Below are positions 1-63,192 of a DNA stretch of 64,000 nt, piece after piece. Made by a program: the position numbers and the translations under genes. The notes beneath the pieces are model-generated. The model did not search any database and was not told where the DNA came from. It saw nothing but the letters and a program-made list of their open reading frames with translations. The stretch covers positions 3,062-67,061 of the IMG/VR virus record IMGVR_UViG_3300036760_000681. The stretch is one strand, 5' to 3'. Source of the stretch: a virus. Position 1 is the stretch's first letter. Each line of letters begins with the position of its first letter.

Positions 1-626
1 AGCGCCAAGCGCTGTGCGGACGAGGACCAAAGGTACTCGCTCGGAACACGCTTCTCGTGGCTGAGTTTCCCCATGAGATCGACATCGCGCAGTTTGACCG
101 TGAGGGGATTCTGGTATCCTTTGCGCCCCACAAGTCCGTGGTCATACGCAATGCGGCGGCGTTTCACGGTCACGCCGCAGGTCGCGACAACGGACGCAAC
201 GATCTCGCTGTCCGCAGAACTGATCGTTGGGTACGAACCGCGAAAGCATCCGTCACCCAGTAGTAGTCCCATCAGGTACGGATCAAGAGGTAGCTCGCGT
301 TCCGGATACTGGGCTGGAGACGCGATTGGAATCCTCCAGGATAACTCTCGGTTCAACCCTTCAAGTTCCCGGGTCGTCGCGACGCGCCAGCCCCGACGAC
401 GATACGCATCCTTCTTCGATTGAACCACCCAGAGGTGGTCTCCGCTCGCCCTTGTCTGCGCGCCGTCGGCAAATCCGACCTCAAAAACTGGTATGGTGCC
501 CTGTGGAAACACGCCAATGACCGTTGTCGGCAACCCGTTGCTGCCCATGACGAGGTCGCCGATGCGTAGGTCTCCGATAGGCCGCCATCCGGTCGGCGTG
601 AGGACGGGTTCGTCGATTGGCTGGGC
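1..626 (-). mobile_element. Intein (Hint N-terminal part plus LAGLIDADG homing endonuclease), partial
   Basis: Block A AQPIDEPVLTPTGWRPIGDLRIGDLVMGSNGLPTTVIGVFPQG, block B TRASGDHLW, first LAGLIDADG helix LPLDPYLMGLLLGDG. Inserted right after the P-loop lysine. Confidence 0.9.
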
Positions 627-986
627 TTTCGAGGTGGTCGTTCCCGCGCTCACCGCACACGACTTCCCCGCGAAGATGGTTTCGAGCGCGGTGACGAGTG
701 GATCCGGGTCGCCGTCCCACAGGTGCGGCCGACCCTGGTTGCCGACGGCTTCGCACTGGGGGCAGTAGCAGCAGGCGTACTCGGGGTTCAGGCTCCAGCG
801 GATCGTCGGCTCGGGAACGTTGAGCTTGTTGACGATCCAGCCGACCGGGTCATTCGCGTACTCGACGTGCGCCCGGATACTCGATGCCCAGACGCCAGCA
901 CGCTTGCGGCGTTCCAGCTCGGCCTGCGCCTGGAGCTTGATGCGCTCCGATTCGGCGGCGCTGACGGTGGCTTGCGGGGCGGTCAC
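1..986 (-). CDS. terL: Terminase large subunit, N-terminal part with intein; runs off the left edge
   Basis: Manual translation of the minus strand (not in the ORF track). GTG at 986 overlaps the upstream TGA and the frame stays open to the edge: MTAPQATV...EYANDPVGWIVNKL...ETIFAGKSCAVSAGTTTSK, then the intein. Walker-A-like loop, same strand as and downstream of TerS. Confidence 0.75.
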   Translation of the reverse strand, partial: MTAPQATVSAAESERIKLQAQAELERRKRAGVWASSIRAHVEYANDPVGWIVNKLNVPEPTIRWSLNPEYACCYCPQCEAVGNQGRPHLWDGDPDPLVTALETIFAGKSCAVSAGTTTSKAQPIDEPVLTPTGWRPIGDLRIGDLVMGSNGLPTTVIGVFPQGTIPVFEVGFADGAQTRASGDHLWVVQSKKDAYRRRGWRVATTRELEGLNRELSWRIPIASPAQYPERELPLDPYLMGLLLGDGCFRGSYPTISSADSEIVASVVATCGVTVKRRRIAYDHGLVGRKGYQNPLTVKLRDVDLMGKLSHEKRVPSEYLWSSSAQRLA

Positions 987-1153
987 TTGTAGCGGGCGAT
1001 CGCTCCGATGCCCTTCATGGCCTTCTTCGCGCCACACTTGGCGCACTTCATGGCGCCGGCCTTCATCGGCATCCCGCACTGGGCGCACTCACCGGCCTCG
1101 GTGTCCTTCATGCCCTTCTTCTCGCCCGGCTCGCCCTTTTCCCACGGCTTCAT
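983..1153 (-). CDS. Small zinc-ribbon protein
   Basis: MKPWEKGEPG...CAQCGMPMKAGAMKCAKCG with two CxxC pairs; start/stop overlaps with both neighbours. Confidence 0.6.
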   Translation of the reverse strand: MKPWEKGEPGEKKGMKDTEAGECAQCGMPMKAGAMKCAKCGAKKAMKGIGAIARYK

Positions 1154-1380
1154 GGTCGCCCTCGGTGGTTGGTGACCGCCACGATGTGGCAGCAGTCTCT
1201 TCGCAACTCGCGCTTCTGACAACTACACCGATAATACTTTCCGTGGTCGGTGACAAGGTGGTCGAGCCCGTCCAGGTGTACGGTCCAGCGGTCGGGGAGG
1301 TCTTTGCGGGGCGGCCAGGCGGTAACGATGGGTCCGGGGAGATTCACCCCGGCGGGTTTCGAGAACGCCGACCAGGTCAC
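1150..1380 (-). CDS. SWIM-type zinc finger protein
   Basis: YRCSC-x9-CHIVAV matches the CxC...CxH pattern. Confidence 0.65.
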   Translation of the reverse strand: MTWSAFSKPAGVNLPGPIVTAWPPRKDLPDRWTVHLDGLDHLVTDHGKYYRCSCQKRELRRDCCHIVAVTNHRGRP

Positions 1381-1718
1381 GCCGCTTCACCGAAAACGGT
1401 GCAATCCTCCGCGTGCTCGAACGTGATCGCCGTGGCGCCCGGCGCGCGGCGCACCACGACTTTACACTTCCGGCAAGTGATGGTGCTATCGGTGATCTTG
1501 AGGTGGTGGCTCCGCGGCCGCCCGAAGGGCCGCTCGACATGGCGAACCTTGAGGGGAACCGGGGGCTTCTGGGGTGGGAGCAGCGGCGGCCCGGGCGCCT
1601 CGAAGTTCGGCGGGCGGTTGCCGAGACTCACAGCCAACTCTCCAATCTGGCGATTCGATGGCGGAGCGCCATCCACGCCCACGCCGGCATCACTGCACCG
1701 TCCGGCTCTGGCGCACAA
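1377..1718 (-). CDS. Hypothetical protein (start uncertain, probably near 1680)
   Basis: Stop overlaps the next start; contains CRKC...HAEDC. Confidence 0.45.
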   Translation of the reverse strand: MCARAGRCSDAGVGVDGAPPSNRQIGELAVSLGNRPPNFEAPGPPLLPPQKPPVPLKVRHVERPFGRPRSHHLKITDSTITCRKCKVVVRRAPGATAITFEHAEDCTVFGEAA

Positions 1719-1956
1719 TCGACATCCGCGGCTCCACCACAGCGCCCGTTAGGCCCTCGGCCTGATCCTCCTCGGCCTCCACGCGCTCCCGGTGCCGCGC
1801 ATCGCTCACCCCGGCCTCGTGACCGTAGGTGAACCCTTTCCTGTAACCACGCCCGAAGGCCGCCTCGATGGTCAGGGGCGTCCCCTTCACGCAGGCTTTC
1901 CAGCCGGCCACAAAGCAGGCGGCGCAAGCCAGGACGATGAGCAGGGCGTCGATCAC
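1690..1956 (-). CDS. Hypothetical membrane-anchored protein
   Basis: N-terminal hydrophobic helix, then FGRGYRKGFTYG; coupled to the VRR-NUC stop. Confidence 0.6.
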   Translation of the reverse strand: MIDALLIVLACAACFVAGWKACVKGTPLTIEAAFGRGYRKGFTYGHEAGVSDARHRERVEAEEDQAEGLTGAVVEPRMSIVRQSRTVQ

Positions 1957-2279
1957 GGCATCCCTCGAATTAGGGCTACTTGAGCCGCGGCGGCGGCCAG
2001 CCCGCCCACCACGAAGTCCTCGGAGCAGTTGCGGCAGAGGTTCTGGAAGTCCACCTGATCCTCGCTCAACTTCCCGCCCTCGCGCTTGACCTCGTGAAAC
2101 CAGAATGCGCCCCGGGCCGGCCAGAACACCAACAGATCGGGCAGGCCGAGCGCGACCTTCGAGCGGCGGGCTTGCGAGGTGCTGAGTACCCGGCAGCCAA
2201 CTGTCCGATAGAACTTGACGACGGCGCGCTGGACGTCCTTCTCCAGCGGCGCGGGCAACTTCGGCGTGCGGAGCTTCAC
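1953..2279 (-). CDS. VRR-NUC domain nuclease (resolvase-like)
   Basis: EKDVQ...GLPDL...FHEVKREGGKLSEDQ, a PD-(D/E)xK motif. Confidence 0.85.
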   Translation of the reverse strand: MKLRTPKLPAPLEKDVQRAVVKFYRTVGCRVLSTSQARRSKVALGLPDLLVFWPARGAFWFHEVKREGGKLSEDQVDFQNLCRNCSEDFVVGGLAAAAAQVALIRGMP

Positions 2280-2300
2280 CGCTTGCCTCGCCTCACGGAC

Positions 2301-2579
2301 TCACCTTTGATCGACCTTCACGGCGCGCCACTTCAGGCCGCCGTTGTGTTTCGTGCGCACGTAACTGATATCCAGGTCGGGGCCCTCGTAGCAGTCGATA
2401 AGCCGAACCTCCGGCATCATCGCGGTCGCGACCCGGATGGCTCCGGTCATGTCACAGCAGTTCCCTACGGGAAGGTGCAGCGCCATGTGCCGCTCGCCGA
2501 CCACCCTCCAGCAGATCCAGCAACACTGGAGCGTTTCGCTTCGTACATACGGAATCGCGGCCTCGAGGGGAATGGTCAC
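2301..2579 (-). CDS. Hypothetical protein
   Basis: GTG start overlapping the upstream TGA; MTIPLEAAIP...CCDMTGAIRVATAMMPEV. Confidence 0.55.
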   Translation of the reverse strand: MTIPLEAAIPYVRSETLQCCWICWRVVGERHMALHLPVGNCCDMTGAIRVATAMMPEVRLIDCYEGPDLDISYVRTKHNGGLKWRAVKVDQR

Positions 2580-2692
2580 CGCCGCTTGCCCCGCCTCTTC
2601 GCACGACGGCGACGGCGGCGAAGTTCGTCGGAGGCCAGAAACCGCAACTGTACCAACTCGCGCCACGTCAGGGTTTTGACGGTGATCTTCAC
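2576..2692 (-). CDS. Small basic protein (38 aa)
   Basis: Manual translation MKITVKTLTWRELVQLRFLASDELRRRRRRAKRRGKRR; GTGA overlaps at both ends. Confidence 0.5.
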   Translation of the reverse strand: MKITVKTLTWRELVQLRFLASDELRRRRRRAKRRGKRR

Positions 2693-3249
2693 CGCCCACC
2701 CCGCTTCTTCGGCTTCCATTCCGTGCGCCCGCGCTTCTTGAACTTCTTGATCTTCTCGGCATCGAAAGCGTCGATCATCGCCCCGTCGGACTCGGCGCGC
2801 GAGAGGCCCTTCTGCTCCGTCGCCTTCTGGGCGACGTGGTACGCTGCCGTCACCGCCGGCTCCTTAAGGAGTCTCGCGCCGAAGAACCGCTTGAACTCGC
2901 GGTGCATTTCCTCGCCCGTCGCCGGGTCGGGAACGAGATGCCCGTCCTCGATCTCCGCGTTGAAGGCAACCACGGCCTCGTCGAACCAGCGGCGAAAGTG
3001 GGGCAGGGCCACCAGGCTCGGCGGGAGGGACTGCGCCTGCGTCCACGCCTCCTGGCGCCAGCGTTCGCCGGCGGCGGCGATAGCCGCCGTCTCGCGGTCG
3101 CACTCCGCGTCGAATCGGTCGATCTCGTCTTCGCCGCCCCACTCGCACCAGTCCGTCCAGAAGGCGCGCTCCTGCTCGCTGAGCGTCTCGCGGTCAAACT
3201 CGACCGAGTGGATGACGCCGTGTTGGGTGATTTCGACGGTGATCTTCAC
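2689..3249 (-). CDS. Protein containing a paralog of the scaffold-protein core domain
   Basis: About 35 of 78 aa identical to part of 57420-58661, including EFKRFFG. Confidence 0.8.
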   Translation of the reverse strand: MKITVEITQHGVIHSVEFDRETLSEQERAFWTDWCEWGGEDEIDRFDAECDRETAAIAAAGERWRQEAWTQAQSLPPSLVALPHFRRWFDEAVVAFNAEIEDGHLVPDPATGEEMHREFKRFFGARLLKEPAVTAAYHVAQKATEQKGLSRAESDGAMIDAFDAEKIKKFKKRGRTEWKPKKRGGR

Positions 3250-3614
3250 AGCCCCAGCGCCCGGTTGAGTTCCTGCAAGCCGTCGAAGGCCTCATTCAGT
3301 TCGCGCCGAATCTCGCAATGGTTCCCCGTCACACGCGCGGAGAACGACGGCACGGCGCTCGCGGCGTAGTTGTTTCCGCGCGCTCCTTCGTCGGCCCTTT
3401 CCGGCCGCGGCATGAGTGTCCTGCTCAGAATGGTCTGAACGAAATTGGCCAGCTCGCCCGCCCTCGCGGCCAGCGCTTCGCTCTCCGTCGCGATCGACTC
3501 GAGTTCGCCGGGCGGGCGGGTGGCCGCGCCGAGACCTGGCGGCGCGGTGCGGGCCGTCATCTCGCTCTGTTGTCGGTAAAACTCGTCTTTGGTCTGGTAG
3601 GAGCGCTCGTTCAC
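3246..3614 (-). CDS. Hypothetical coiled-coil protein
   Basis: AGGAGG RBS before the GTG; first gene of a coupled run. Confidence 0.7.
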   Translation of the reverse strand: MNERSYQTKDEFYRQQSEMTARTAPPGLGAATRPPGELESIATESEALAARAGELANFVQTILSRTLMPRPERADEGARGNNYAASAVPSFSARVTGNHCEIRRELNEAFDGLQELNRALGL

Positions 3615-3670
3615 GAATCCTCCTGGTGGGTGCGCGGCAGGCCCGAACGGACCGGCGTCGCGAGGCTATC

Positions 3671-3890
3671 GTTATACTTTTTCTCTCTCCAGTCAATGTC
3701 GGCTCGGTGTCGCCAGTGTCGCGATATAGTGTATCGACGCCTCTTGACAAACCACGTCCACAGTGCGACAGTTACCTCCAGCACCCCACCTTCGGGTGGA
3801 TCACGCGAGCCCCACCAAATTCCTCCGCCAGGGGTTGTCCGGTGGGGCTTCGTGCGTCCCCCTCTTGCGTAAAAAAAGAAGCCGTGCAAG
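3671..3890. promoter_or_regulatory. Divergent promoter region
   Basis: Minus-strand TTGACT...TATAAC (3696-3671, short spacer), plus-strand TTGACA at 3744, TTGCGT...CAAGAT before 3901, and a long hairpin at about 3802-3854. Confidence 0.45.
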
Positions 3891-3900
3891 ATTGCCGTTC

Positions 3901-4179
3901 ATGACAAGCCCTGGCACGGTGTCTTCATTGCCCCCCGCAGTCCACGCGCCTTCCCCGGCCGCCCTCTTCGGCGGTCGTGACGACATCAGCGCCGTCCCAG
4001 GGACATCGCCAACCAGCCTGAACCTCGAGCCGCGCCGCGGGCCCATCAGCTACGGCTGCGGCCACACAATCGACGTCGGCTTCGGGCCAGCACGAACAGA
4101 CCGCGACCCCTGCGAAGCCTGCCACCGCGCCGCCGGCACCTGGCCGCGCGAAACCGTCATCCTGCCGAGGGGCGCGTGA
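3901..4179 (+). CDS. Hypothetical protein with CGH...CEAC metal motif
   Basis: ATG 3901; stop overlaps the DUF559 start (GTGA). Confidence 0.55.
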   Translation: MTSPGTVSSLPPAVHAPSPAALFGGRDDISAVPGTSPTSLNLEPRRGPISYGCGHTIDVGFGPARTDRDPCEACHRAAGTWPRETVILPRGA

Positions 4180-4793
4180 AGTCACGGCTCCATGCGCACG
4201 GAAGCCGGCGCAGTCCCTACGCGGACGGCCGGAAGCCGAGAACCGACGTCGAGCCGTGGTGGAACGCCATCGTCATCCCTGCGACGGGGCGCACCGCCAC
4301 CGTCACCGGTCGAGGAACGCAGCGGCACAAGAAGCAGCCTGCCCGGCCCCGCTCCGCGCGCCTCGGCAAGTCCGACGCCCAGTTCGCCCACGAGGCCGAG
4401 AACGCCCGCCGGCACGACGAAGCGCTCCGGCGCCGCGCGGCGAAGCAGATGGCCGAGCGACCCACCACGGCCCGGGGCGACAAAGAGGCGTTTCGGCAAC
4501 ACCTGATCGCCCACCCCACTCCAGCCGAGGCCGCGCTCTTCGCCCACCTCCAGGCGTGGGGGATCCCTTTCGAGTTCCAGCCGCTCGTCAAAGGCTACAT
4601 CCCTGACTTTCGGATCCTCCCAAGCCGCCTCCTCGTCGAACTCGACGGGCCGATCCACGACGCACAGCAAGACAAAGACCGCGAGCGCGAGGGCCATCTC
4701 ACCCGCCGCGGATGGCGGATCCTTCGCTTCACCAACGATGCCCTCTTCTTGAATCCCGACGCCGTGCGACGCGCCATCGCCGAGGCAGCCTAG
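4176..4793 (+). CDS. DUF559 / Vsr-like endonuclease
   Basis: TPAEAALF...YIPDF...LLVELDGPIH...DREREGHLTRRGWRILRFTN. Confidence 0.85.
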   Translation: MKSRLHAHGSRRSPYADGRKPRTDVEPWWNAIVIPATGRTATVTGRGTQRHKKQPARPRSARLGKSDAQFAHEAENARRHDEALRRRAAKQMAERPTTARGDKEAFRQHLIAHPTPAEAALFAHLQAWGIPFEFQPLVKGYIPDFRILPSRLLVELDGPIHDAQQDKDREREGHLTRRGWRILRFTNDALFLNPDAVRRAIAEAA

Positions 4794-5420: not shown

Positions 5421-5841
5421 GCCTCTCGGTAGGGAAAAACGGCGCTACGGCGGCTACCGCGCTCAAGTCCGCGCGGAGGTCGTACACTTGGCGGCCCGGG
5501 GGGCCCCGCCGGGGTGGGGGCTGCTCAGTTGGTTGGTGACCGGTCGGTCGGTGGCTGCTCGCCTCTCATCGCCTCGCGCTGCGCCGAGCTCGCCCGCTGC
5601 GCGCCGCGGCCGCGCTTCCCTCCCCTCGCTACCTCCTTGCCTCGCGCTGCGCTGCGCTGGCCCCGCATCGCGTACCGCTACCGCGCTCGCCTCGCCCGCG
5701 CTGGCCCGCGCTGGCCAGGCATCGCACCCGGCCAGCCAGGTAGGCCAGGCATCGCCGGCCAGGGGTTGCCAGGGCGCCCCTGTTATGGGGCGATGGGGTC
5801 AGACGGCTAAGTGATGGGCTAGCAACGGGCTACGGAAGGTG

Positions 5842-5888: not shown

Positions 5889-6551
5889 CTACGCGCCTCG
5901 CTGCGCCCCGCGCGTTTCGGTAGGCTCCGGGAGGTGGGTAGCAGGCTCCGGGTCGGCGGCGCTCGGCGTTCCTGGGGCATCTTGGGAGGTCACCAGCTCG
6001 GCCGGCTCGCCCGGCGGCGGATCCCCCTTGCCGAGCTGCGCGCGCTTCGGCGCGCCGTTGAGTACCGCCAAGACATGCTCACCGCGCGCCAGGCGCTCGA
6101 CCTGTTCGTCCCCCAGGCGGCCGATGTCCAGATGTGCGATAACCCCGCTCACGTCCACCCGGTCCGACCATCCCATGTTCTTGAGCCCGAAGATGGCGCC
6201 GGCGGCGGCCCCGCCGGTATCCGCAGAGCGGAGCGCCGCCTCATAGTCCTGCTCGATCAGAGAACGCGCCTGTTTGATGGCGGTGGAATACTCTGGGTAC
6301 GTTGATCCGTATTCGTTCAGTGCTTGCCGCCCCGACATGCCCAGGTAGAGGGCTAGTCCCGTCCAGAGAATCGGCGCCGGCGGGTCACAGGCCAGGCACT
6401 CGGCTACATACCGCTCGGCCAGGTCCACCAGCTCCGCCGGCGAGCTGATACTCCGCGGCCGGCCAGGTCGCCGGTTGGGGTTCGGATCGTTCGGGTCGAG
6501 TCCGGGGCCAGGCTGGTAGGGCGCGGCCGCGGCGCGGTGGGCGGCGGTCAT
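5889..6551 (-). CDS. terS: Terminase small subunit (P22 gp3-like)
   Basis: GRPRSISSPAEL...PILWTGLALYLG...YPEYSTAIKQARSLIE...AGAIFGLKNMGWSDR. Confidence 0.85.
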   Translation of the reverse strand: MTAAHRAAAAPYQPGPGLDPNDPNPNRRPGRPRSISSPAELVDLAERYVAECLACDPPAPILWTGLALYLGMSGRQALNEYGSTYPEYSTAIKQARSLIEQDYEAALRSADTGGAAAGAIFGLKNMGWSDRVDVSGVIAHLDIGRLGDEQVERLARGEHVLAVLNGAPKRAQLGKGDPPPGEPAELVTSQDAPGTPSAADPEPATHLPEPTETRGAQRGA

Positions 6552-31618: not shown

Positions 31619-34600
31619 TCATCGGGCGAGCGCCGGAGCGCGGTACTTCTGGCGCTCGGCAACGCGCTTCAGTCGCAGCGTCCGCAGCCACAACTTCTGC
31701 TCGTCCGGCGTCCCCAGGCCGTAGATCTCCTCGGCCTCGTCGAGTGTCAGTTGCTTGAAGCGTCCCAGGGTAGGGTTCTCCCGGCTCTGGCGCCAGAGGT
31801 TCTGAGCCTGTACAGCGCTCATTTCGTGCGCCCGGACGGCGCGCTGGAGATCGGGTCGGCCCCGTGTCCCGCTGCGGAGCCCTTCGAGCATGTCGGTTCG
31901 GCGCTGTGCCGTGGCCTGTTCCTGCGGGGTGCGACCCTCCGCCCGACGCCCGCCGAGGTACTCCATCATGCGGTTCTGGGCGTCGGTGCGCACATCCTCC
32001 CGCCGGGCCGGCGTGACGCCGACGAAGGACGGCAGACCGCCCGCCACACCCCCGGTGCGGCGCTTGACCTCGGCCACGTTGCGGATGCCGATCGGTACGA
32101 ATTGAGTACCGATGTACTTGGCAACCTGCTCCGCCTGCGTCACGATCGGGTCGTGTTCGTTGCGAATCTTGTCGCCGTAGTAGTCCTGGTTCTGGAGCAT
32201 CCCCATAATCATCCCGATCTCGGGGTGCAACTTGTGCGTGACCGTGCCGATCGGATGGCGCGAGTAGGCGGCGATGTCCTTCATGTAACTCGGCAACTGC
32301 ACCCGCTCGATGTTGCCTTCGCGGTCCACTTGCCCGGTCGGCGGATAGAAGTAGTCCTTCAGCGTCTCCGGCCCGTGGCCCGTGTAGAGATAGGTCATGG
32401 TAGCGCCCATCAGGCCGACCGTGATGGGCAAGGCGAGCAAGTAATCGCTGCGCGAGCTCGCCTGAAGCCGAGCTAGGTCGAGCGCGCCGCCGCCGAGTTC
32501 CCTGATCGTACCCAAATTCCAGCCGACGGCGCGCACCGAGGCCATCGACAAGTCCTTCAGGGTCCGATTCCAGAACAGGTTGTCGTAGACCATCTGGCCG
32601 AGCCGGTTGTCCACCGAGTCCCAGGAACGCTGAAGCACCGCCTTGGCCTCATCCACCGTGGCGGTCGCCGGCAACTTCTCCATCTCGTAGCGCGCCAGAT
32701 CAAAGAAGACGCCGAGCTTCTGCCGCGGCACGGCATACTCCATGATCGGCCGCGCCAACTGCTCGAGCAGCGCGGGCCCGAACGCGCCCAGCGCCGCGCC
32801 GACCAAGGCGTTGCGTCCGCGATACTCTTCGTCTGAGGCGGCGCCGATGGCAGCGCCGGCGCCCGCGCGGACAGCCAGTGCCTTGAGTCCCTTGCCGGTG
32901 CGCACCGCTTCCAGGAGCGTATGACCGGCATCGGTGCGGTAGAAGGTGTCCATCTTCACCCGACCGCCGGCCAACTCAAGCGAGTTCACCGCCTCGGCAA
33001 GCGCCTGGTCTCCGGTGCCACGCAGGTAGGCCTTCAGCAATCGGTCGCCGCGAATCAGGTTGGTGAGTGGCGCGACGGGAGTCGAGAGCGCCGTCACGGC
33101 CGCACGCAGCGGCTCGCCGCCACGCAGTTGCCGGATTCCGAGCGCCATGCGTGAAGTCGCCGCGTCCACGGAGGTAAAGCCCAAGTGGAACGCCGACAAG
33201 CCGAGTTGTGCCTGGTTCAGTGTGTTGCCGAGTCCCATGTAGGCGTCGTAGATCGGGTTGCCGCGCAGCCCCGGCGAGAGGTGGTTGTTCAGTACGTTCG
33301 CCACGGCCTCCGGCGCCCAGTATTCGCCCATGATCCGCCGGCCAGGCACCGTGACCTCGCCCGGCTCGATGTTCGCGCCCTCGGGCAAGGTCACCGCGCC
33401 CTCGCGGGGGCCGAACACGGTGGCGATGGAATCGTTGATGCGAGCGTAGCCGTCGGGAATGGTCCCGCCGGCGCGGACGTAGCGCAGGAGCCCCTGCCCT
33501 TTCAGTTCCGCGAAGGTGCGCTGCGCCATCAGGTAGCGGCGCATCTCGCGGATCTTGAGCATCGTGAGGTCGAGCGGATTCGTCGTAACCGGCGTCAGGC
33601 CGGCCGCCACGCCGTCGGCCGTGGTCGGAATGGTCCGCTGCTTCAGGAACGCCCGCGAGCCCTGCAACGGCCGGCGACTGAGGATCTGCGCGACCACCCC
33701 GCCCGCCCGATCCGGCTGCTCCCAGATGTGCGGGAAGTAGTGCTCGATGAAGTTCTCGAGTTTGCCGGTGCCGAGTTGCTGTATCTGGACCCGCGCCCGG
33801 TCGAGTTCGACGCGAATGTGGTTGGCCGCCGGCTGCAACGCCTTCGGCAGCGCGGCCACCTGGTTCGTCTCAATCGCGTCGATGAAGGCGTAGCGTTCGG
33901 TGTCGTGTAGCGGCTCGACGACCTGTCGGAACGTCCGCAGCGCCTCGGCCACGCGCTCTATGTCGTGCGCCTGAGAGCCGAGTTGCGCCCGGAGCGTCCG
34001 CGCGGCCATCGCCGCCTCGGGCGAACGCAACTGCGGGGCCAAGGTCTTGGCGATGCTCTGGCCGACCCGCGACACGCCGAAGCGTTCAACGCCGGCCCGG
34101 AGGATGCCCGGAGCGTTGGCGAGCCCGGCGCCGGCCAGCGCGCCCAAGGCCGCGCCGCGGAGCGGGTCATCCTTGTTCGTGACTGCCCCAACTGCCGCCC
34201 CACCCGCCGCGCCCGCGAGGGTGCGCAGCACGACCGGGTGCGCGCCGCCCGTCTCGTCCGGCGGCCCAGCGGACGATTGCTCGGCGTCGCCCAGAATCGA
34301 CTTGATGCTCGCATCGGCCATGTGCGCGGGCGCTTCCCAGCGACCGATCCGGTAGCCGGTCTGCGTGTCGATCACGTCAGACTCGGCGGCGCGGAATAGT
34401 TCGCCGCGGGCGTCCTTGTAGAGTTCGTAACGCTGTCCGGCGGCGTTCGTGAAGAAGGCGACGTGGCCCTTCGACTTCACCGGCTCGGCGGTGGCCTGCG
34501 GCGTCAACTCCAGCGGCGTCTCGCCCGCCGGCGTCGTACTCGGGCGCTCGGCAGCCAGTCGCGCCGTCTCCTCGGGCTGAATCTTCCCGGCCTTCAAACG

Positions 34601-37600
34601 CTCGGCGGGGCGCCCGGCGCTCTCGGGCAAGAGGCTCGTCTGTTCGCGCCCGATCCGGGCGTCCGGGCCGAGAAGATCGGTCTGGACGGCGAAGTTGTCG
34701 TGCGGGGCGCCGGCCTCGACGTTGGTCGCAGTCGGCTCCATCGCCGCCAACTTCGCCTTTGCCTCGGCTAGTCCGGGCACCGTGAGGCCTTGACCGGAGG
34801 CAGCTTCCATCATGCGGACGCGAGCCGTGAGCCCTTCGAGGTCGTCGGGGAGCGGCGAGCGGACGGGTGGGGGCTCGCTGCGGGCGACGGCAGTGCCGGG
34901 GGCCGCCGCGGTAGCACGGTGTGCACGGCCAGCCTGTTCGGCCCCGAGCGCCATCATGTCGGCCTTCTCTTCGGCCGTCAACTTGCCAATCTTCGCGAGC
35001 GTGGCGCGCATCTCACTGATGTCGGCGTCCGTCAGTAGCCGGACGTTTACTTCCGGGTCGGACGGGAGGTAGATCGGCTCCTCATTCTGACCCTGGGTGC
35101 GCACTTCGATGCCAGCCTCGCGCGCCTGCTTGTTCACGCGGGCGACGGACAACTCGTCGAGCGCCACGCCGGGTGCCGGGGTGGGTGCGGCTGGTCTGCT
35201 CTCAGGGCGCACGACGGGCTCAACCGCCGGTTCCTGCAAGAGAGGGGCTCGGCCCACGTCCGGCTGGTTCCCGGTGGAACTCGGTACACCACCTGAACCG
35301 AAATCCTGAGCGACGACACGCTGACGGTCTCCCCAAAGCCTGTCGGGCACCTGTTTCGTGGCCTGGGCAATGGCCGTCGCTTCCTCTGAGGTGACGAACC
35401 TGCCCCGATCGGTGACGTAGCCGCTTTCCATGCCCTCAGGGATGAGGCCGTCGGGCTGGGCATCCTGCGCCTTGGTCATCGCCTCGACGTGAATCTGGCC
35501 CTCGTAAACGGTGCCATCGGCGAGTTTCACGGCGGCTGACCTGATACGTTCGCCGCCAATCGGCGCGGACGTTTCAGGAACAGGCACCGGGGTCTGCGGT
35601 GCCCCGAATATGCCTTCCTGTGCGGGGTCGATGAACGGCGGGGCTACGGCTTCGGAGTTTTCGCCTGCTCCAGACTTTGCAGGTACAGCCGCGCCGCCCG
35701 CGCCGCTTGCTCCCAATCCACCGAGGTCGAGTTCGGCTCGGATGACGCCGGGGATTTGTTTGTGGGCATCGCGGACGATGTCGGCGAAATTGGCTTCTCC
35801 ACTGGCGAATCTCCTCGCGCTGTCGGTTATCAGCGTACTCATGGGGCCACTGCGCGTATAGGAACGCTGGAACATCTCTTCCAGAAGCGCGGACTGTTCC
35901 GCCGTCGCCTTCGCGGCGTCCACGTCAACGAACGACTGTCCGATCTTGCCCACATCCTCAGCGTGCGTCCCGCGCGTGAGGTAGGTGGCGAGGCGCTTGT
36001 CGGCGAGAATCCGGTTTCTCAGGGCATCGACGATTTCCGCCTTGGGGCCGACCAAGGACAACCGTTCGGCCGCGTCGTTGAAGATGACGCCCTGGTCGGT
36101 ATCGACCGGAGCAGCGACGGTCTCCTCGGCGCGGAACTGGCGGGCGATCTCTCGCATCTGGCCGTCCGTGTACTTCCGCTTCGTCTTCCGGGCGTAGGCA
36201 AGCGCCTGCCGCTGGAGGTCGGGGGCGCTCGCCAGCTCGTCGCCGATGGCGATGGCCCAACCTTCGGGCAGTTTGCCGCTCAACGCCTGCGCGTACAGGT
36301 CCGGCGTCAGGCCAGCGAGGGCACTCCCATCCCGGCCCAGGGCGTCCTTCACGTTCACGCCGAGGTCGGCAAGATCCTGCCGCGTCCGGCCCGTCTCGCG
36401 CATCCACGCCGCCATGTCGAACGGCGTTCCGTTGCCTTGGGCGATGTTGATGAGTGCGCCCGCCGCCTTGGCGTCCGCTGCCGTGGCCACCGGCAGCCGG
36501 AAGACGTTCGCGTGCGTCTGACCGAGCCGCTGGGAGTTGTTGGCGCGATTGTTCCCGTTCACGACGTATTCGTAGCCGTCGGCCGGGTCGATCCAAGTCG
36601 CCAGATTCTCGCTCGCGCCGACCAGTTGGTTGTACCGCGAGACGCCGGCCATCCGGTTCTTCTTGTCTCGACGCCACTGGAACCGCGCTTCGTCTACCCG
36701 GATGCCGTTCGGGTCGTACCAGGCATAGGGCCGCTGGACGACGGGAAGCAGGCCTACATCCTCCACCCGGAACGGCGCGCCCGGCGCCCGGCTCGGCACC
36801 TCGGGCGTCGCCATGACCCGCGCCCGCTCGGCTTCGATCTGCTGGCGCTCGGCGAGGACGTCGGGGTTGAGACCCGGCTCGGCTGGCCTGGCTGGCGGCG
36901 CGCCCTCGGGCCGCTGGATGAAGGACGGAATCTCGACGGGGGTTTCGACCACTGTCGGCCCGTAGTCCGCCAGAACGCCCGATGCCGCCGTTTCGCCGGT
37001 TCTCTGGTTCCTCCAGAGGTCGCCGTCGGCCCGTTGCCACCGACCACTGAGGGCCGGTGAGCGGGGCGCCTGCACGTCAACCGTCGTGCCGCGCGGCAAG
37101 TCGGCGAGGGCCACGGGTTCCTGTGGGGCCGCTGGACGCACGGGCTCCACGGCGGAGGCCGATGGCCTGACGAGGGGCTCGGGGGCCGCGGCGGGGCGGG
37201 TAGGCTCACCACCGCCGCCACCGCCACCGCCTCGGAACAGGCGCGCAGCCAGACCCGGAACTTCCCCGGCCGCCCCGAAAGCGCCACCCATCTCGAGTCC
37301 GGCCCTCATGCCGCCCGTCATCCGTTCGGGAATCTGCTCTGGGCGTCCTTCGGCGACCGCTGAGCCCGTCTCGAAGGTGCCGAACTTGGCGGCGTCCGTC
37401 AGGGCGCGCTCGCCCACCCGACCGATCGCCCCAAGGACGCCCGGCACGCGACCAACGAAGCCCGGAGACTTGTTCAGAACGGATCCGCCTGGCACCGCCG
37501 AGGCGGCCGTCCACCCACCCGCCAACTCGGTGAGGCCGCCGATAGTGGAACCGACGGTGCGCATCGCACGGCCGATAGGCCCTTCGTTCTGACCCGCCGC

Positions 37601-56066: not shown

Positions 56067-57386
56067 TCAGTAATTCGGAACCGGCGAGAAATCGGCCGTT
56101 GTGAGATCGGTCGTGATGCCCGTCAGCGCGCCGTTCACGCCGCGGTTCGTGCAGAACGTCTGCATGTACTCCGCGACGAACGCTTCCTTGCCGTCGAAGT
56201 CGGCGATGCGCGCCCACTGGTTGCCATCTTCGGCCCAGAAGTCGGCTTCGCCGCCCAGGTTGGCGCGGACGAGGTTGTCCTTGCAGATCGTCATCGCGAC
56301 GTCGTGATAGAAGTTGCCGTCCGCGACGAGCGGCAGGCCGGAGACGGTGACGCCCGAGTACCCACCCAGGAGATCGCCGCCGGTGTACGCCTGCTGCTGG
56401 TAGCCCATCATGCCGCGCGCGACCTGCGCAATGGCCGAGGGGAAGGTGATGAGGACGTCCGTGGCCGGTGTCACCGGGAAGCCGCGCTTCTGGCCCAACT
56501 GAAGCCAGTGCTCGGTCAGTTCGAGGTGGTCGAAGGTCACCGACGCCTTGCGGAACGGCTTGCTCCGCGGGTACGTCGCTTCGGCGATGTTGAACACCGT
56601 CGAGAGCGCAGCGGACGGATCGACGATCGTGCCGAGACCGTTCGGGCCGAGGTTGCGCTCGAGCTCGAAGTAGTCGCGGGTGATGACGCTGGTGGTGGCG
56701 AAGTACACCAGATCGTCGGCCACGGCGGCCGGCGTACCGGATTCCGTCTCCCACGACGCGACCATCGTGATTGCGCGCGTCGAGTAGTTGATCGAGGAGA
56801 TCACGCCCGCGCCGCCGACGGCCGACGTCGAGACGTCATACCAGCCGATGATCGACCCTTCCGCTAGCATCGTGAGCGGGTCGGTGTCGGTGTTGCCGTA
56901 GGCGTCGTTGATCGTGAAGACCGTCGTGCTCGTCCGGGTCTCCACCTTGCCGATCAGGGCCGAGCTGGCGCCGATCGAGTGGCGGATCTCCATGTACTTC
57001 CACGAATCCCAGAGGATGTCGTAGAGCCGCGTGCCGAAGTCGGCAAACGCGCCGGGACCGGACGCCTGCTTCTCGATCAGGCTGTCGGCCGCGATGCGCC
57101 GGTAGCGCCGGATCGGGGTGATGCGCCCCTGCACCGGGTCGAGACCCTGGTGGTCGGGGATCATGCCGCTGGTGGCCATGCCACCGGTCGGGTGTCGGAA
57201 GTCGGCGGCGAAGACCATGTGCTGGCCTTCGAGCCGGTATTCCTTCGGGCCGGCGTTGCGGAACAACTGCGAGGCCGGTGATTCGACCCGCACGTTCGGC
57301 AGCACCTTGCCTACGAAGATGTCGTGTGTCAGACCCGTGAGGTCGGTCATCGCCTCAAGGTTGGTCTGCTGAGAACCGAGTGCCAT
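56067..57386 (-). CDS. Major capsid protein
   Basis: 439 aa, after the portal and scaffold; GAGGAG RBS; GPNGLGTIVD; C-terminal NRGVNGALTGIT. Confidence 0.8.
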   Translation of the reverse strand: MALGSQQTNLEAMTDLTGLTHDIFVGKVLPNVRVESPASQLFRNAGPKEYRLEGQHMVFAADFRHPTGGMATSGMIPDHQGLDPVQGRITPIRRYRRIAADSLIEKQASGPGAFADFGTRLYDILWDSWKYMEIRHSIGASSALIGKVETRTSTTVFTINDAYGNTDTDPLTMLAEGSIIGWYDVSTSAVGGAGVISSINYSTRAITMVASWETESGTPAAVADDLVYFATTSVITRDYFELERNLGPNGLGTIVDPSAALSTVFNIAEATYPRSKPFRKASVTFDHLELTEHWLQLGQKRGFPVTPATDVLITFPSAIAQVARGMMGYQQQAYTGGDLLGGYSGVTVSGLPLVADGNFYHDVAMTICKDNLVRANLGGEADFWAEDGNQWARIADFDGKEAFVAEYMQTFCTNRGVNGALTGITTDLTTADFSPVPNY

Positions 57387-57419: not shown

Positions 57420-58661
57420 CTAGCGTCCTGGGTAGCGCCGGGCGGATTCCTCCGCCACGCTGTCCCGTATCTGTCGGCGAACCTGCGTGGCAGGCGTTCC
57501 GGCGGGGACGGCGTCCCGGCCCTCCGCGCTGCCTGGTGACGTGGGACGCTCGCGGCCGGCGGTGGGCAGGCTTCCCAGCGGATGCGGGGGCGCCCCTCCA
57601 CGCTTGGCGGCAAGGTCTTTCATGTGCTGCTCGACGGCATCCTTGCGGATGCGTTCGACTTCGGCGGCCTTGGTCGCGGCCTCGTTGGCGGCGGCCTGTT
57701 GGCGCTGCTGGTCCCGGGCCTCGAGGCCGGCGTAGGCGTCCCGAACGGACGGCTGCGCGACCAACATGGAGCCGAAGAACCGCTTGAACTCGGTGTGCAG
57801 ATCGTCACGGTTCTTGGCGTTGGGGAAGTGGCCCAACTCCAGTTCGGAGTTGAACGACTCCACGGCCGCCTCGAACCACTGGTTGAACCCGGGCAGTGCG
57901 GTGACGTGCGCCGGCATCGTCTTCGCCTCGGCGTACGCCTCGCTCTTCCACGCCTGACCGGCCTGCTCGACCTCCTGTGCCTCGATGGTGCCCAGGCGCC
58001 CATCGTAGTCCTCGCGGGCCACTTGGTCCATCTCGGCCTTGACGCCCGCCCGGTAACGATCGGCGACGTCCTGGCCGTAGGTCTCGAGGAGTTCGGTGTA
58101 CTTGGCCTCGGCCTCGGCGAACTTCGGGTCGGCGGCGAGCTTGTCGCGGGTGCTCTCGCGGGACTGGAGTTCGATCACCTGGCGCTGGAGGTCATGCGAG
58201 CGCTGGCGCTCGGTCTCGAGTTCCTGCCGGCGGGTGAACGAGGTGCCATTCAGCACGGTGCGGAGAAACTGCTCCTCCTCGGCCGTGGCCGCCGTGAGCG
58301 CGTCGAGTCGCTGGCCGGGGCGCAGCGCGGGATGGTTCGGGTCGATCGCCACGCGAATCGGCGCGGGCGCCGTGACTTCGGGCGCCGCGGCGACGGGCTC
58401 CGTGGCGGGCGCCTCGCCCGGCGTCGGCTCCGTGACTGCCGGCGCGTCAGCCGCAGCCTGCGCCTCGCTCGCCTTCTCGATGGCCCCGATCACCTGGTCA
58501 CGCGCATCGCGCCGGGACAGGGGGCCGGTCTTCGCCGGTTCAGTCGCCGCGGGCTGCTCGGGCGGGATGGCCGGAGCGACAGGCGCCACCGTGGTCGTCG
58601 CGGGCGGCGCCGGCGGCGTGGCGGTGGTATCGACTGGTACGGCAACGGCTGGTGCGGTCAT
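57420..58661 (-). CDS. Capsid scaffolding protein
   Basis: Between the portal and capsid genes; Pro/Ala-rich N-terminus and acidic coiled coil. Confidence 0.7.
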   Translation of the reverse strand: MTAPAVAVPVDTTATPPAPPATTTVAPVAPAIPPEQPAATEPAKTGPLSRRDARDQVIGAIEKASEAQAAADAPAVTEPTPGEAPATEPVAAAPEVTAPAPIRVAIDPNHPALRPGQRLDALTAATAEEEQFLRTVLNGTSFTRRQELETERQRSHDLQRQVIELQSRESTRDKLAADPKFAEAEAKYTELLETYGQDVADRYRAGVKAEMDQVAREDYDGRLGTIEAQEVEQAGQAWKSEAYAEAKTMPAHVTALPGFNQWFEAAVESFNSELELGHFPNAKNRDDLHTEFKRFFGSMLVAQPSVRDAYAGLEARDQQRQQAAANEAATKAAEVERIRKDAVEQHMKDLAAKRGGAPPHPLGSLPTAGRERPTSPGSAEGRDAVPAGTPATQVRRQIRDSVAEESARRYPGR

Positions 58662-58730: not shown

Positions 58731-60998
58731 TCAGCGCGCGGTCGCGGCAATGGACGGCGCGCCGCCGTCTTCGTTCGGCTGTCCCTGTGGCTGCTGGCCC
58801 TGACCGCCCCGCATCAACTGGAGCGGCGCGCCCGGCTTCTGGGCGGGCCCGGGCAACCCGGGCGTCTGAGCCATCATGGCCTGCCACTGGAAGTACATCT
58901 CCTGGCGCATCCCAGCGGCGGTGCGGGCGATGATGTCGGCCGACTCGTCCTGGGTGACCTCCGACAGGGCGCCGAGGTGGGCTTCGAGGTCGTCGTCGCG
59001 CAGCCGGCGATACTTGGTGTCGATGTACTGGAACAACTGCTGCGCCGCCTGCTGGACGGCGGGGCTATTGGGGTCAGTCTCCTGCAAGCCCGACTGCTCC
59101 CGGAACTGCCGGGTGAGGTCGTGGAACGCTTGGGAAATCGTCCGGGCCCGACGGCGCTGCACGGCCTTGGGGTTCCCGGCGACATCAAAGACCATCGGGT
59201 TCGGGTAGAGCCGCCGCGCCTCTTCGGTGAGCAGGAACGGCTGGCCGTCCGCGCCGCGGGTCTGCATGAGTTCGAGCACTTCTTGAGCGCGCAACTCGGG
59301 ACTCGGCCCGAAGGCGTTGACGAGCTTGTAGTTCGGCGGGCCGTCCGAGACCTTGGTGTTGTCGATGTAGCCGTCGGCCAAGTAGCCGTACTCGTCACTG
59401 GCGATCGGGACGAGCCACGCCACGTCGCCGTAGCGCTTGAACTGCTTCCAGCACCCCCGCATGAAGTCGCAGGCGGCGCGACGGAAGCGCATGTTCACCG
59501 GACCGTGGATGGTGTTGTCGGCCTGCTGGAGCGCCACGATGGCCCGGTAGGCCATCCGGCTTCCGGGCGACTCGCCTCGGGACACGGCCTGGTAGCCGCC
59601 GCCGGTGTAGATCGAGCGCCGGAGGTCTTCGATTTCCTTGTCGAGCCCCTGGAGGATGTAGGCCGGCCATTCCATCGGCCGCGGCCTCACGTTCCCCATT
59701 GAGGGCTCGATCTCCATGACGTTGTAGCCGCCCACGTCCATCATGTCCGAGTCCAAGGCACCGCAGGGAATGATGATCGGGGCCTCGATGCCGCGGTTCA
59801 GGTACTCCCAGCGCTTCGAGCGGGCGAGGTTCAAGTCCACCTGGATCGGGTCAATGTCCTCGATCCACGGCTTGCCGTGCACGTCTTCGCCGCGGTAGCC
59901 GGAGTAGAAGTTCGTGAAGGAGAAGTCGCCCGCCGGGAGCGGCTGCTCGACGAGCAGGACGGCGTTGCCCTCGCCAGTCTGGCCGGTGCGCAGGTCCACG
60001 GCGCCCGGCAGAGCGGCCAACCGCAGGAGGCCCTCGGGCCAGTCCGCATCGACGCCCGGCAGCACTTCCTGGCAGAGCAGGACGATCAACTCCTCTTCGC
60101 CCTCTTCGTGGCGGCGGCGGTCGATCACGCCCGAGCCGTGGATGCCGAGGCCGGCGCTGTTCCAACTCTGGGCGATGCGCTGGAAGTTGGCCGCCGAAGG
60201 GATCCGCGTGGACCCTTCGAGTTTCTCGGCGCCGGCGACGTGGCCGAAGGCCGAGCGCACCAGTTCGGCGGGCAAGACGCGGGTGTAGGAGGCCCGGTGG
60301 ATCGAGCCGCGCTTGGCGGCGGCGTCGAACACGGTATCGAAGGGGTTCCCGACCCAGCAGTCGAGCATCCCGGGGGTCGGATTGAGCGCCCGGCCGATCT
60401 GACCCTCGTCGCTGTCGGCGGCGCCGTACTCGACCGACTCGTACTGGTCGTGCCGGTCGTCGCGCCAGTAGCGGTGCATCGGGCAAAAGCCCGTCGCCAT
60501 CGACATATACAGGGCGTCGGCAAAGAGGCCGTTCAGGTCTTGCTGGTCGGCGATGTGGTTGGCCAGGATGGTGTCGATCACCGCCCGCTCGCGGGAGCGG
60601 CGGTCCGACAGGGCTTCGGAGAAGTACCGCAGCGCCATCGTCGTGTGGTGGGCTACTGCGTTGTCTACGACGAGCCGGAGCAGGTTCTCTGTTTTCCGGA
60701 ACTCCGAGAGTATCCGGGGAATCTCGACCCGCTGGCCCCGGAAGATGTCGGCCCACTGGAAGTCGCCGGTGCCGTCGATGTGAATGAGGAGCTTTTCGGA
60801 GAGCAGGTCGCGTTGCTGCCGAGCTCTCAGGCCGGCGACATGCATCCGCACCATGCGCTGCGCCGCGTCGGTGCGGGAGCGGCGCTGCTGGGCGAGGGCG
60901 TCAACTTGATTGGTGGCGGGAAGGGGCGAAACGACGGGCGTCGGCGCCGACATGGTGGCCCCGTTGAAGGGCATAATCATCGCTGGCGCTGCGGTCAT
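58731..60998 (-). CDS. Portal protein
   Basis: 755 aa, first structural gene; ENLLRLVVD; DIDPIQVDLN...; Gln/Pro-rich tail. Confidence 0.8.
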   Translation of the reverse strand: MTAAPAMIMPFNGATMSAPTPVVSPLPATNQVDALAQQRRSRTDAAQRMVRMHVAGLRARQQRDLLSEKLLIHIDGTGDFQWADIFRGQRVEIPRILSEFRKTENLLRLVVDNAVAHHTTMALRYFSEALSDRRSRERAVIDTILANHIADQQDLNGLFADALYMSMATGFCPMHRYWRDDRHDQYESVEYGAADSDEGQIGRALNPTPGMLDCWVGNPFDTVFDAAAKRGSIHRASYTRVLPAELVRSAFGHVAGAEKLEGSTRIPSAANFQRIAQSWNSAGLGIHGSGVIDRRRHEEGEEELIVLLCQEVLPGVDADWPEGLLRLAALPGAVDLRTGQTGEGNAVLLVEQPLPAGDFSFTNFYSGYRGEDVHGKPWIEDIDPIQVDLNLARSKRWEYLNRGIEAPIIIPCGALDSDMMDVGGYNVMEIEPSMGNVRPRPMEWPAYILQGLDKEIEDLRRSIYTGGGYQAVSRGESPGSRMAYRAIVALQQADNTIHGPVNMRFRRAACDFMRGCWKQFKRYGDVAWLVPIASDEYGYLADGYIDNTKVSDGPPNYKLVNAFGPSPELRAQEVLELMQTRGADGQPFLLTEEARRLYPNPMVFDVAGNPKAVQRRRARTISQAFHDLTRQFREQSGLQETDPNSPAVQQAAQQLFQYIDTKYRRLRDDDLEAHLGALSEVTQDESADIIARTAAGMRQEMYFQWQAMMAQTPGLPGPAQKPGAPLQLMRGGQGQQPQGQPNEDGGAPSIAATAR

Positions 60999-61219: not shown

Positions 61220-61501
61220 TTAGGAGGATGGCTCGGCTAGGATAACAGAATGGAGCGTTACCGTGTCCTCGTTGAAGGTGTAGTAGATCACCACCCCCGG
61301 AGCACCCGGCCAAGGCTCGGTGGGCAGAGCGAACACCCCGTCCACGCCCGTCACCCTACCCGCTTTCCCAGGCTCTCGGCAGAGCGCCCAGGTGACCCCT
61401 CTCATGACCTCATCCCAACGGGCGATGTTGGGCAAGATCGCATCCCTCTCCCGCTTGAACTGCGCTGACTCAATGATCGTGCGGTGTGTGGTGACGGTCA
61501 C
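61220..61501 (-). CDS. RelE/ParE-like toxin
   Basis: 93 aa; IIESAQFKRE...VVIYYTFNEDTVTLHSV; coupled to the antitoxin stop. Confidence 0.65.
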   Translation of the reverse strand: MTVTTHRTIIESAQFKRERDAILPNIARWDEVMRGVTWALCREPGKAGRVTGVDGVFALPTEPWPGAPGVVIYYTFNEDTVTLHSVILAEPSS

Positions 61502-62028
61502 TAGATGGCCAGGGTCAGCGCATGTGCGATTTCGGACTCCGTCAGTTTGCGGTCATCAACGAACACGGATTCCAAAGGGATGTCCTCCCCATCGTGGGCG
61601 AGTTGCCACGCACTGGTCCGGTGGGAGAGTTCGCTTACTTCCGTGGCGTTCCCATCCCACAGGTCCTTGATGGTCCGCTGAACCAGCGCGATTTCTTCTC
61701 CGGTAAACGCACTAAGGTCAGCCACGCGCAGCGCGATAGGGCGCTCCTGCTTATTGCCGCCGTAGTCCCTGGTCTGAATCGCCAGAGCCTCCGCGTCCTT
61801 CAGCGCGTTTCGAACCGGCAGCAAACGCCGTGGCGCCGGTCCCCATTTCAGCCGCTGATACGGCTGCCCGGTGATCGACTTCCCGGTCTGACCGTAGGCT
61901 ATGAAGTCAGACCAGAAAAGGATCTTGTTCAGCTTGGTCGCGCCGTACCTCGGATCATCTTCGGATTGCGCCGAGATGTAGAGGATCAGCTCGCCCAACT
62001 TGTCGTCGTTCGGTCGCTCGTTTGCCAT
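61501..62028 (-). CDS. Panacea (DUF4065) domain antitoxin
   Basis: TKLNKILFWSDF...G.SITG..Y.RLKWGP...VSELSH...W. Confidence 0.85.
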   Translation of the reverse strand: MANERPNDDKLGELILYISAQSEDDPRYGATKLNKILFWSDFIAYGQTGKSITGQPYQRLKWGPAPRRLLPVRNALKDAEALAIQTRDYGGNKQERPIALRVADLSAFTGEEIALVQRTIKDLWDGNATEVSELSHRTSAWQLAHDGEDIPLESVFVDDRKLTESEIAHALTLAI

Positions 62029-62124
62029 GCCGTCCTCCACGCTCGGGTAACCCCCCAAACATAAACCAAACGGGGGCGAGCGGACAATCCGCTGCGCCTC
62101 GGTGGCCTCGAAATCCCATGCTAT

Positions 62125-63027: not shown

Positions 63028-63179
63028 GATTGGCGAGGCTTCCGGTTCGGGCGGGGGCGGCGCTTCTTGGGCGTCGCCTTTGCCTTTGGTGGGGTGGTGC
63101 CGGTCAGGCGGTTCACCACGTCGTATGCGGCCACTACCGGATCACTAGAAGGACGCTTCTCGCTTGAGCGTTTAGGCAT
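63024..63179 (-). CDS. Small basic protein (51 aa)
   Basis: MPKRSSEKRPSSDPVVAAYDVVNRLTG... Confidence 0.5.
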   Translation of the reverse strand: MPKRSSEKRPSSDPVVAAYDVVNRLTGTTPPKAKATPKKRRPRPNRKPRQS

Positions 63180-63192
63180 GGGGCTAGTGTAA

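Follow-up and report, generated by a model that had tools for sequence, protein, structure and literature searches.

Introduction

As extended, fast-evolving proteins that are seldom traced in structures, scaffolding proteins are hard to study. As a functional class they bind coat protein, are required for procapsid assembly and are missing from the mature virion. Nested genes give some viruses a pair of proteins with a scaffold segment in common (UL26 and UL26.5 of herpesviruses, C and Nu3 of phage lambda); such pairs have identical sequence, read from one reading frame, and the coat-binding end is retained. Truncated fragments of the P22 scaffolding protein, in vitro and as encapsulation tags, demonstrate that part of a scaffold still engages procapsids, and these fragments keep the C-terminal coat-binding helix-turn-helix. 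The small protein CpmB, encoded by the satellite SaPI1, resembles a scaffold at the coat-binding C-terminus and aims at the coat-binding site. According to one report, CpmB competes with the scaffolding protein of phage 80alpha in capsid assembly (PMC5644958); in phage T4, according to another, a capsid targeting sequence directs internal proteins into the scaffolding core (PMC3012670). Here we describe ORF186, an open reading frame (ORF) of 186 codons in a 64,000-nucleotide stretch of phage DNA (the window, in whose numbering coordinates are given unless stated otherwise) that covers bases 3062-67061 of the 67,061-bp IMG/VR record IMGVR_UViG_3300036760_000681, from an uncultured sediment phage. 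Sequence comparison shows ORF186 to be a partial, free-standing paralogue of another protein of this genome, whose gene lies between those for portal and capsid and which is probably the scaffold.

CpmB is the nearest functional analogue, in that both are small alternative proteins; competition with the scaffold is described for CpmB and is only proposed for ORF186. ORF186 is phage-encoded rather than satellite-encoded, lying in a 67-kb record that is rated 100% complete and has terminase, portal, scaffold and capsid genes of its own. It shares the central core of the scaffold without the C-terminus, unlike CpmB: the homology stops before the linker and the helix for which we infer a coat-binding role, and size redirection, a trait of the CpmB type, would be hypothetical for ORF186. 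The likeness to T4, whose diverse accessory proteins reportedly enter the prohead by means of an element that targets them to the scaffolding core, is a functional comparison only: T4 uses a short conserved targeting sequence, N-terminal and cut off by the prohead protease, rather than a scaffold paralogue, and packaging of ORF186 is hypothetical. Unlike the nested scaffold genes, ORF186 is a separate gene, 37% identical to the scaffold, about 11 kb away from it and without the coat-binding end. P22 fragments keep the C-terminus whereas ORF186 keeps the middle, and the two families are unrelated in sequence. Set against its own scaffold-like family, ORF186 is alike in the core and the following helix and differs in its gene slot.

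ORF186 carries the core of a probable scaffolding protein

The homologous parts of the two genes are as follows.

2689..3249, minus strand: ORF186, stand-alone gene for a putative scaffold core, 186 amino acids, GTG start (ORF list, BLASTP, family profile)
3094..3249, minus strand: ORF186 codons 1-52, acidic, net charge -10, no detectable homologue; in the AlphaFold2 (AF2) model a low-confidence beta-hairpin, then the start of a long helix
2734..3093, minus strand: ORF186 codons 53-172, helical core and following long helix (family profile; AF2 predicted local distance difference test score, pLDDT, mostly 83-98)
2689..2733, minus strand: ORF186 codons 173-186 and stop, end of the Lys/Arg-rich tail
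57420..58661, minus strand: 413-residue probable scaffolding protein P0005, in the portal-capsid slot
57594..57983, minus strand: residues 227-356 of that protein, homologous to ORF186
57771..57792, minus strand: 22-nucleotide stretch identical to 2878-2899

Aligned as a pair by BLASTP, ORF186 and the 413-residue protein are identical at 46 of 126 positions (37%, with 58% positives; E-value 5e-24), which bears out the partial paralogy first proposed in a reading of the letters without database searches (hereafter the sequence-only reading). That reading had counted about 35 identities by hand in a 78-residue stretch, and the exact count there is 35; the 22-bp identity that it gave between 2878-2899 and 57771-57792 is exact, is maximal at 22 nucleotides and encodes EFKRFFG. 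Residues 53-172 of ORF186 match a profile built from 78 full-length family members (E-value 1.6e-37, search space one) at profile positions 244-365 of 427, and no other stretch of ORF186 is matched. The core domain of the family, W..EAW...LP...LP.F..WF..A..F...GH.P...H.EF..FF..RL...P.V, is present, and the AF2 model of ORF186 (mean pLDDT 83.5, core 91-98) has the same helix pattern as scaffold residues 197-356.

The full family architecture consists of a Pro/Ala N-terminus, an HP..R..MG/EER segment, a coiled coil, a PPHPLG motif and a basic C-terminal helix about 90-100 residues after the core. ORF186 lacks the Pro/Ala-rich N-terminus, the HP..R..MG / EER..RALLNG segment and the first coiled coil as well as, by alignment and profile, the PPHPLG motif and the C-terminal helix, and has 41 residues after its core, against some 75-105 in nearly all members. 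Where the family has the PPHPLG linker and the C-terminal helix stands a Lys/Arg tail (net charge +10 over residues 164-186); this tail and the new acidic N-terminus (net -10) are both as the sequence-only reading had described them. The N-terminal hairpin of ORF186 was considered as a homologue of a hairpin segment of the scaffold and rejected, the family profile yielding no second matched stretch. Neither a family in Pfam, PHROGs, NCBIfam or PADLOC, at the thresholds used, nor a usable ESM Atlas match was found for ORF186, and Foldseek returned no match against PDB or BFVD at an E-value of 1e-3 or less.

ORF186 is placed among packaging genes, as had been noted before: it lies between the small and large terminase genes (terS and terL), on the same strand, and is not in the portal-capsid slot. 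The 55 kb that the sequence-only reading put between ORF186 and the scaffold gene did not hold. Rated 100% complete, the record ends in direct terminal repeats (its first and last 127 bases are identical), and a distance of 10,962 bp, measured over the record junction, separates the two genes within a single minus-strand series; the larger figure arises because the record was linearised at a cut point. The minus-strand order is terS, (a plus-strand DUF559 gene), ORF122, ORF186, orf38, orf92, a VRR-NUC gene, three small ORFs and terL, and past the junction the series continues with an accessory island, the portal gene, the 413-residue protein gene and the major capsid gene.

The scaffold-like family

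Among 1.84 billion cluster representatives searched with phmmer, 93 proteins match ORF186 at an E-value of 1e-3 or less and 26 at 1e-10 or less. The sequence-only reading had allowed that the shared domain might be a widespread module; instead, all of these matches fall into one family. Of the 93, 79 are at least 350 residues long and are matched at about residues 200-400, and the core ends about 75-105 residues ahead of the C-terminus in nearly all long members. From this fixed place in long proteins it follows that the module belongs to one family and is not a widespread domain, and by these searches it is restricted to a single scaffold-like family (P0002, P0003, P0005 and about 90 more clusters).

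That ORF186 copies a scaffold core is the part of the earlier claim that needs qualification: the homology stands, and the scaffold identity of the 413-residue protein is drawn from gene order and predicted shape. The family gene occupies the portal-capsid slot in this genome and, where gene order was read, in the related loci G001, L009 and L011. The AF2 model of the 413-residue protein (pLDDT 82.9) comprises a disordered Pro/Ala-rich N-terminus, very long helices and a small helical core; towards the C-terminus come one more long helix, a linker without order and a short final helix. Together these make it probably the scaffold. The 413-residue protein matched no family in Pfam, PHROG or NCBIfam at the thresholds used, no named family was matched by more than two of the 78 family members scanned singly, and the 78-member profile found nothing in PDB below an E-value of 0.075. 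In a Foldseek search with the scaffold model, no match reached an E-value of 1e-3 or less; 6 of the top 50 BFVD rows carry the name scaffold or scaffolding (E-values 0.04-0.6), which is at best a hint.

Proposed role of ORF186

We tentatively read ORF186 as a real, lineage-specific accessory gene whose product, a mini-scaffold, would have a function in assembly of the phage itself, as its modulator or as a passenger. The product would combine the scaffold's folded helical core with the stalk helix beside it, with the acidic N-terminal part in place of the scaffold's N-terminal half and the Lys/Arg tail in place of its C-terminus. It would be made late, with the head genes; the gene lies on the same strand and in the same series as the terS, terL, portal, scaffold and capsid genes. 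The product would act via the shared core, joining or competing for core contacts (self-association or a procapsid partner). By analogy with 80alpha and P22, the C-terminal helix of the family is likely the coat-binding element; missing it, ORF186 could not be a complete scaffold and would modulate procapsid assembly or ride along with it. The basic tail might be a crude electrostatic stand-in for the lost basic C-terminus, or might bind nucleic acid. A basic tail is borne by both stand-alone forms of the core: the second, P0004, is a 142-residue protein on a 1,669-bp contig unrelated to that of ORF186, with a short N-terminus, the core and a tail of net charge +7 over its last 16 residues that ends in RKRGRG. 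A common N-terminus of the two was rejected, as 236 of 2000 shuffles reached the observed score.

ORF186 marks an autonomous folded unit of the scaffold family and so offers a handle for finding the binding partner of the core. If it acts on assembly, then a phage itself, and not only satellites, can deploy scaffold mimics, and cargo loading of capsids would have a natural design to follow; if it is inert, it is a clear example of short junction repeats shuffling gene pieces into the region between terminase genes.

Accessory gene or neutral by-product

The alternative that survives best, somewhat unlikely in our estimate, is that ORF186 is a neutral by-product: part of a scaffold gene that was taken up, in frame, by a small gene in the terS-terL region, which is prone to recombination, and that has no selected function, whether it is translated or not. 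Its composition speaks for the accessory gene. GC content at codon positions 1, 2 and 3 is 0.67, 0.45 and 0.90 over the whole of ORF186, and it is 0.63, 0.38 and 0.90 in residues 1-52, 0.73, 0.48 and 0.89 in residues 53-145, and 0.56, 0.46 and 0.90 in residues 146-186. The novel ends of ORF186 thus share the composition of established coding sequence, and this pattern in all three parts, the non-homologous N-terminus and tail included, counts against a neutral by-product. The same holds for the occurrence of a second protein built of core and basic tail on an unrelated contig, for the retention of conserved core positions, and for the exact limits of the gene unit, which overlaps its neighbours by stop and start codons on both sides. 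Conservation within the family reaches 60% or more in 23 alignment columns; ORF186 keeps 21 of them, where the 94 other sequences in the alignment (nearly all of scaffold length) keep 77% on average, with a standard deviation of 11%; lineage-specific changes in the core number 14 in ORF186 and 13 in the scaffold of its own genome.

The gene boundaries carry evidence on both sides, and the features concerned are these.

3246..3614, minus strand: ORF122, next gene upstream, its stop overlapping the start of ORF186; without a family match
2576..2692, minus strand: orf38, 38 amino acids, Arg-rich tail; start overlaps the ORF186 stop
2301..2579, minus strand: orf92, 92 amino acids, Cys-rich; GTG start overlaps the orf38 stop
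3231..3254, minus strand: left copy of a 24-nucleotide direct repeat, across the ORF122 stop and ORF186 start
2674..2697, minus strand: right copy of the repeat, across the ORF186 stop and orf38 start

The GTG start of ORF186 overlaps the ORF122 stop as GTGA, and the ORF186 stop overlaps the GTG of orf38 likewise (GTGA). For orf38 and orf92, too, family matches are lacking. The two repeat copies are alike at 22 of 24 positions and contain the exact 15-mer GTGAAGATCACCGTC, inside which lies the start codon of ORF186; orf38 also begins VKITV because the repeat spans both the start and the stop of ORF186. The exact 15-mer has only these two sites in the window (chance expectation 0.10 matches, allowing up to two mismatches) and occurs in none of the relatives' loci. 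An exact direct repeat on both sides is typical of illegitimate or short-homology recombination, and in this respect favours the neutral by-product: it looks like the scar of an event, by short-homology recombination or duplication, that created or moved a gene unit of 557 bp. Two sequencing runs gave no joints and no deletion variant between the repeats; one of them, a sediment metagenome that may be the source sample, covers the whole stretch, the other contains only short, unlike pieces, and neither is an RNA run. As a separate observation, the 24-nucleotide stretches 2271-2294, 2574-2597 and 2684-2707, which lie at or near gene junctions, are 72-75% similar, and each codes for a K/R-R-G-x-R end followed by GTGA; they may stem from shuffling mediated by the junctions, or the coupling signals may simply be alike.

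A number of results weigh against a selected role in assembly, and several of them fit the neutral by-product. Residues 138-172, the flanking helix, are strongly diverged and hold 16 of the 30 lineage-specific changes of ORF186. The ratio of nonsynonymous to synonymous substitution rates (dN/dS) relative to the resident scaffold, one of the checks that the sequence-only reading had put forward, is about 0.6-0.8, not low and with no sign of strong constraint (dN 0.64 and dS 0.81 by NG86; 0.63 and 1.00 by LWL85); with dS saturated and compressed by codon bias, this check is uninformative. In a tree of the domain, computed by maximum likelihood from 96 rows and 101 columns (weak, with 43 of 93 inner branches open), the end branch of ORF186, 0.79, is not far over the tree median of 0.62. 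The conserved-column test would come out the same under purifying selection and after recent capture from an unsampled donor scaffold, because the conserved positions are mostly aromatic and aliphatic determinants of the fold, and open frames come cheaply in a genome of 66.5% G+C. A predicted complex of scaffold residues 125-360 with ORF186 scored 0.00 (mark 0.32), which we count neither way; interaction of ORF186 with a partner is a proposal, as the name scaffold for the 413-residue protein is a probable one.

Rarity belongs with these points. Stand-alone forms are only two among the 93 matches, ORF186 and P0004. Three other short matches (P0006, P0007 and P0037) read as N-terminally cut scaffolds, because the P0006 cluster (clustered at 90%) has a 421-residue member while P0007 and P0037 keep the family C-terminus on contigs shorter than 2 kb. 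A profile of ORF186 and P0004 found no further short form in a word-indexed collection, in which a homologue search with ORF186 returned only ORF186 itself. Six related IMG/VR records were retrieved via a capsid-protein profile (capsid identity 59-78%), and each has exactly one ORF186 match, inside an open frame of 414-486 residues that is its scaffold gene. Co-occurrence in related genomes, which the sequence-only reading had proposed to look for, was not observed: a second copy is present in none of the six, nor in either of the two rated 100% complete (G001, 52,271 bp, and G005, 67,951 bp; the other four are 19-62% complete, so absence from them is weak evidence), and the gene is dispensable for the group. 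The terS-terL interval of the nearest relative, G001, holds entirely different genes, with no match to ORF122, ORF186, VRR-NUC or the small ORFs. No credible match to ORF122 was found in any of five relatives (the single match, at an E-value of 0.008, has an internal stop), nor any in Pfam, PHROGs or NCBIfam.

As no second copy occurs in the relatives and the G001 interval differs, ORF186 is, on present comparisons, a lineage-specific gene in a variable accessory region between terS and terL; that it is a conserved part of the assembly pathway is not supported. Wider scans gave little more: tblastn of ORF186 and the scaffold against 50,697 phage records found no match, scans of IMG/VR with single proteins (scaffold, ORF186, P0004 and ORF122) and of GTDB genomes found no relatives, and a scan of JGI metagenomes with a four-sequence alignment gave a single locus, at which a capsid gene follows a scaffold fragment. 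Among the relatives, IMG/VR classes G004 (loci L014 and L017; 68,820 bp, 62% complete) as a provirus, so that some members of the group may be temperate.

Origin of the core and possible relation to competing phages

In the domain tree ORF186 pairs with a foreign full-length scaffold, P0002 (support 98/86; end branch of P0002, 0.22), to which it is 47-49% identical, against 37% for its own scaffold. In a three-way comparison, 14 sites are common to ORF186 and P0002 only, 5 to ORF186 and its own scaffold only, and 30 to the two scaffolds only. Approximately unbiased (AU) tests reject neither a grouping of ORF186 with its own scaffold (p 0.357) nor one with P0004 (p 0.294). Among the 96 family proteins, EFKRFFG is confined to two, ORF186 and the resident scaffold, which counts against foreign origin, and the 22 identical bases are found in no relative's locus; this identity could be left over from duplication within the genome, stem from a short conversion tract or be due to chance. 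The same codon is used at 31 of the 43 identical aligned residues, where 23.9 are expected from codon usage, and homology of a conserved motif together with strong codon bias appears largely to explain the identity. We lean slightly towards capture from a P0002-like lineage, with duplication inside the genome neither favoured nor rejected by these comparisons.

It is possible, but in our view unlikely, that a scaffold core, perhaps from a competitor's lineage, has been set up as a separate late gene whose product infiltrates scaffold assemblies, acting either as a dominant negative against co-infecting relatives and satellites or as a capsid-targeting tag that loads a DNA-binding passenger into the phage's own head. 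Taken as a weapon only, ORF186 would poison the procapsids of a co-infecting phage or satellite as a dominant negative while sparing the more diverged resident scaffold. The grouping with P0002 and the excess of sites shared with it agree with this, as does the missing C-terminal module, and a place in an accessory region suits conflict genes. We nonetheless regard the weapon as distinctly unlikely: the AU test leaves the grouping with the resident scaffold standing, EFKRFFG and the 22-nucleotide identity are common to ORF186 and that scaffold only, the core as an oligomerisation surface is an assumption, and no precedent was found in the open-access literature searched, which describes no separately encoded, diverged scaffold-core paralogue in a phage genome.

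Cargo and decoy alternatives

ORF186 might instead be a packaged internal or cargo protein, in which the core would serve as a capsid-targeting module, the tail would bind packaged DNA, and delivery to the next host would be possible. The tripartite build of acidic head, scaffold core and tail of net charge +10 is compatible with such a function, and a functional analogy exists with the T4 internal proteins (PMC3012670). A protease site and presence in the virion would be hypothetical, no search having been made for a prohead protease or cleavage motif; the N-terminal part has no recognisable effector domain in Pfam, PHROGs, NCBIfam, PADLOC or the ESM Atlas, and none of the six relatives has the gene. 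We therefore hold this to be very unlikely. That ORF186 serves as a decoy, drawing off a host immune sensor for the scaffold core, is extremely unlikely: its place in an accessory region and its mimicry of a structural protein are all that points to it, ORF186 matches no defence or anti-defence family, and the accessible parts of the literature on scaffolding proteins as defence triggers describe no such sensor.

Genomic neighbourhood

The remaining genes of the series and its surroundings are listed here.

3..1088, minus strand: large terminase terL, 5' part; the whole gene encodes 974 amino acids and runs off the window start
1953-2279, minus strand: VRR-NUC nuclease gene
4176-4793, plus strand: DUF559 endonuclease gene, Vsr-like endonuclease fold, within the terS-terL interval
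5889..6551, minus strand: small terminase terS (PF16677 GP3_package, E-value 3.2e-10; phrog_606)
56067..57386, minus strand: major capsid protein gene
58731..60998, minus strand: portal gene (weak P22_portal and phrog_156 matches)
61220-61501: 93-residue ORF abutting the SocA/Panacea gene (accessory island)
61501-62058: SocA/Panacea-domain protein (accessory island)
62125-63027, plus strand: P63C-domain protein (accessory island)

Rfam, promoter and terminator scans of the ORF186 region gave nothing beyond background. Two other sources of scaffold-like or decayed sequence were considered and rejected: ORF122, orf38 and other neighbours as scaffold remnants gave negative bit scores, and positions 2280-2576, read as decayed sequence, are occupied by the 92-residue ORF in another frame.

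The accessory island lies at 61220-63933, between terL and the portal gene, and also holds a 246-residue ORF; in the relatives G001 and L009, terL is followed by one small gene and then the portal gene, with no island between. The terL gene (record positions 1225-4149, minus strand) encodes 974 residues here and 607 in G001. The extra stretch of about 370 residues follows the region of the nucleotide-binding loop, and its matches in PHROGs are to terminase, helicase loader and primase; its interpretation as an intein is a reading of this intein-like PHROG pattern, and Pfam gives no family for it at an E-value of 0.01 or less. The insert and the DUF559 and VRR-NUC genes together point to a hotspot of mobile nucleases. 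At 5565-5663, in the interval from the DUF559 gene to terS, two copies of a 31-nucleotide repeat (84% alike) occur at a spacing of 68 nucleotides. Farther away, an ORF of 2222 amino acids (31619-38287, minus strand), with weak glycine-zipper matches only, probably encodes a large virion or injection protein.

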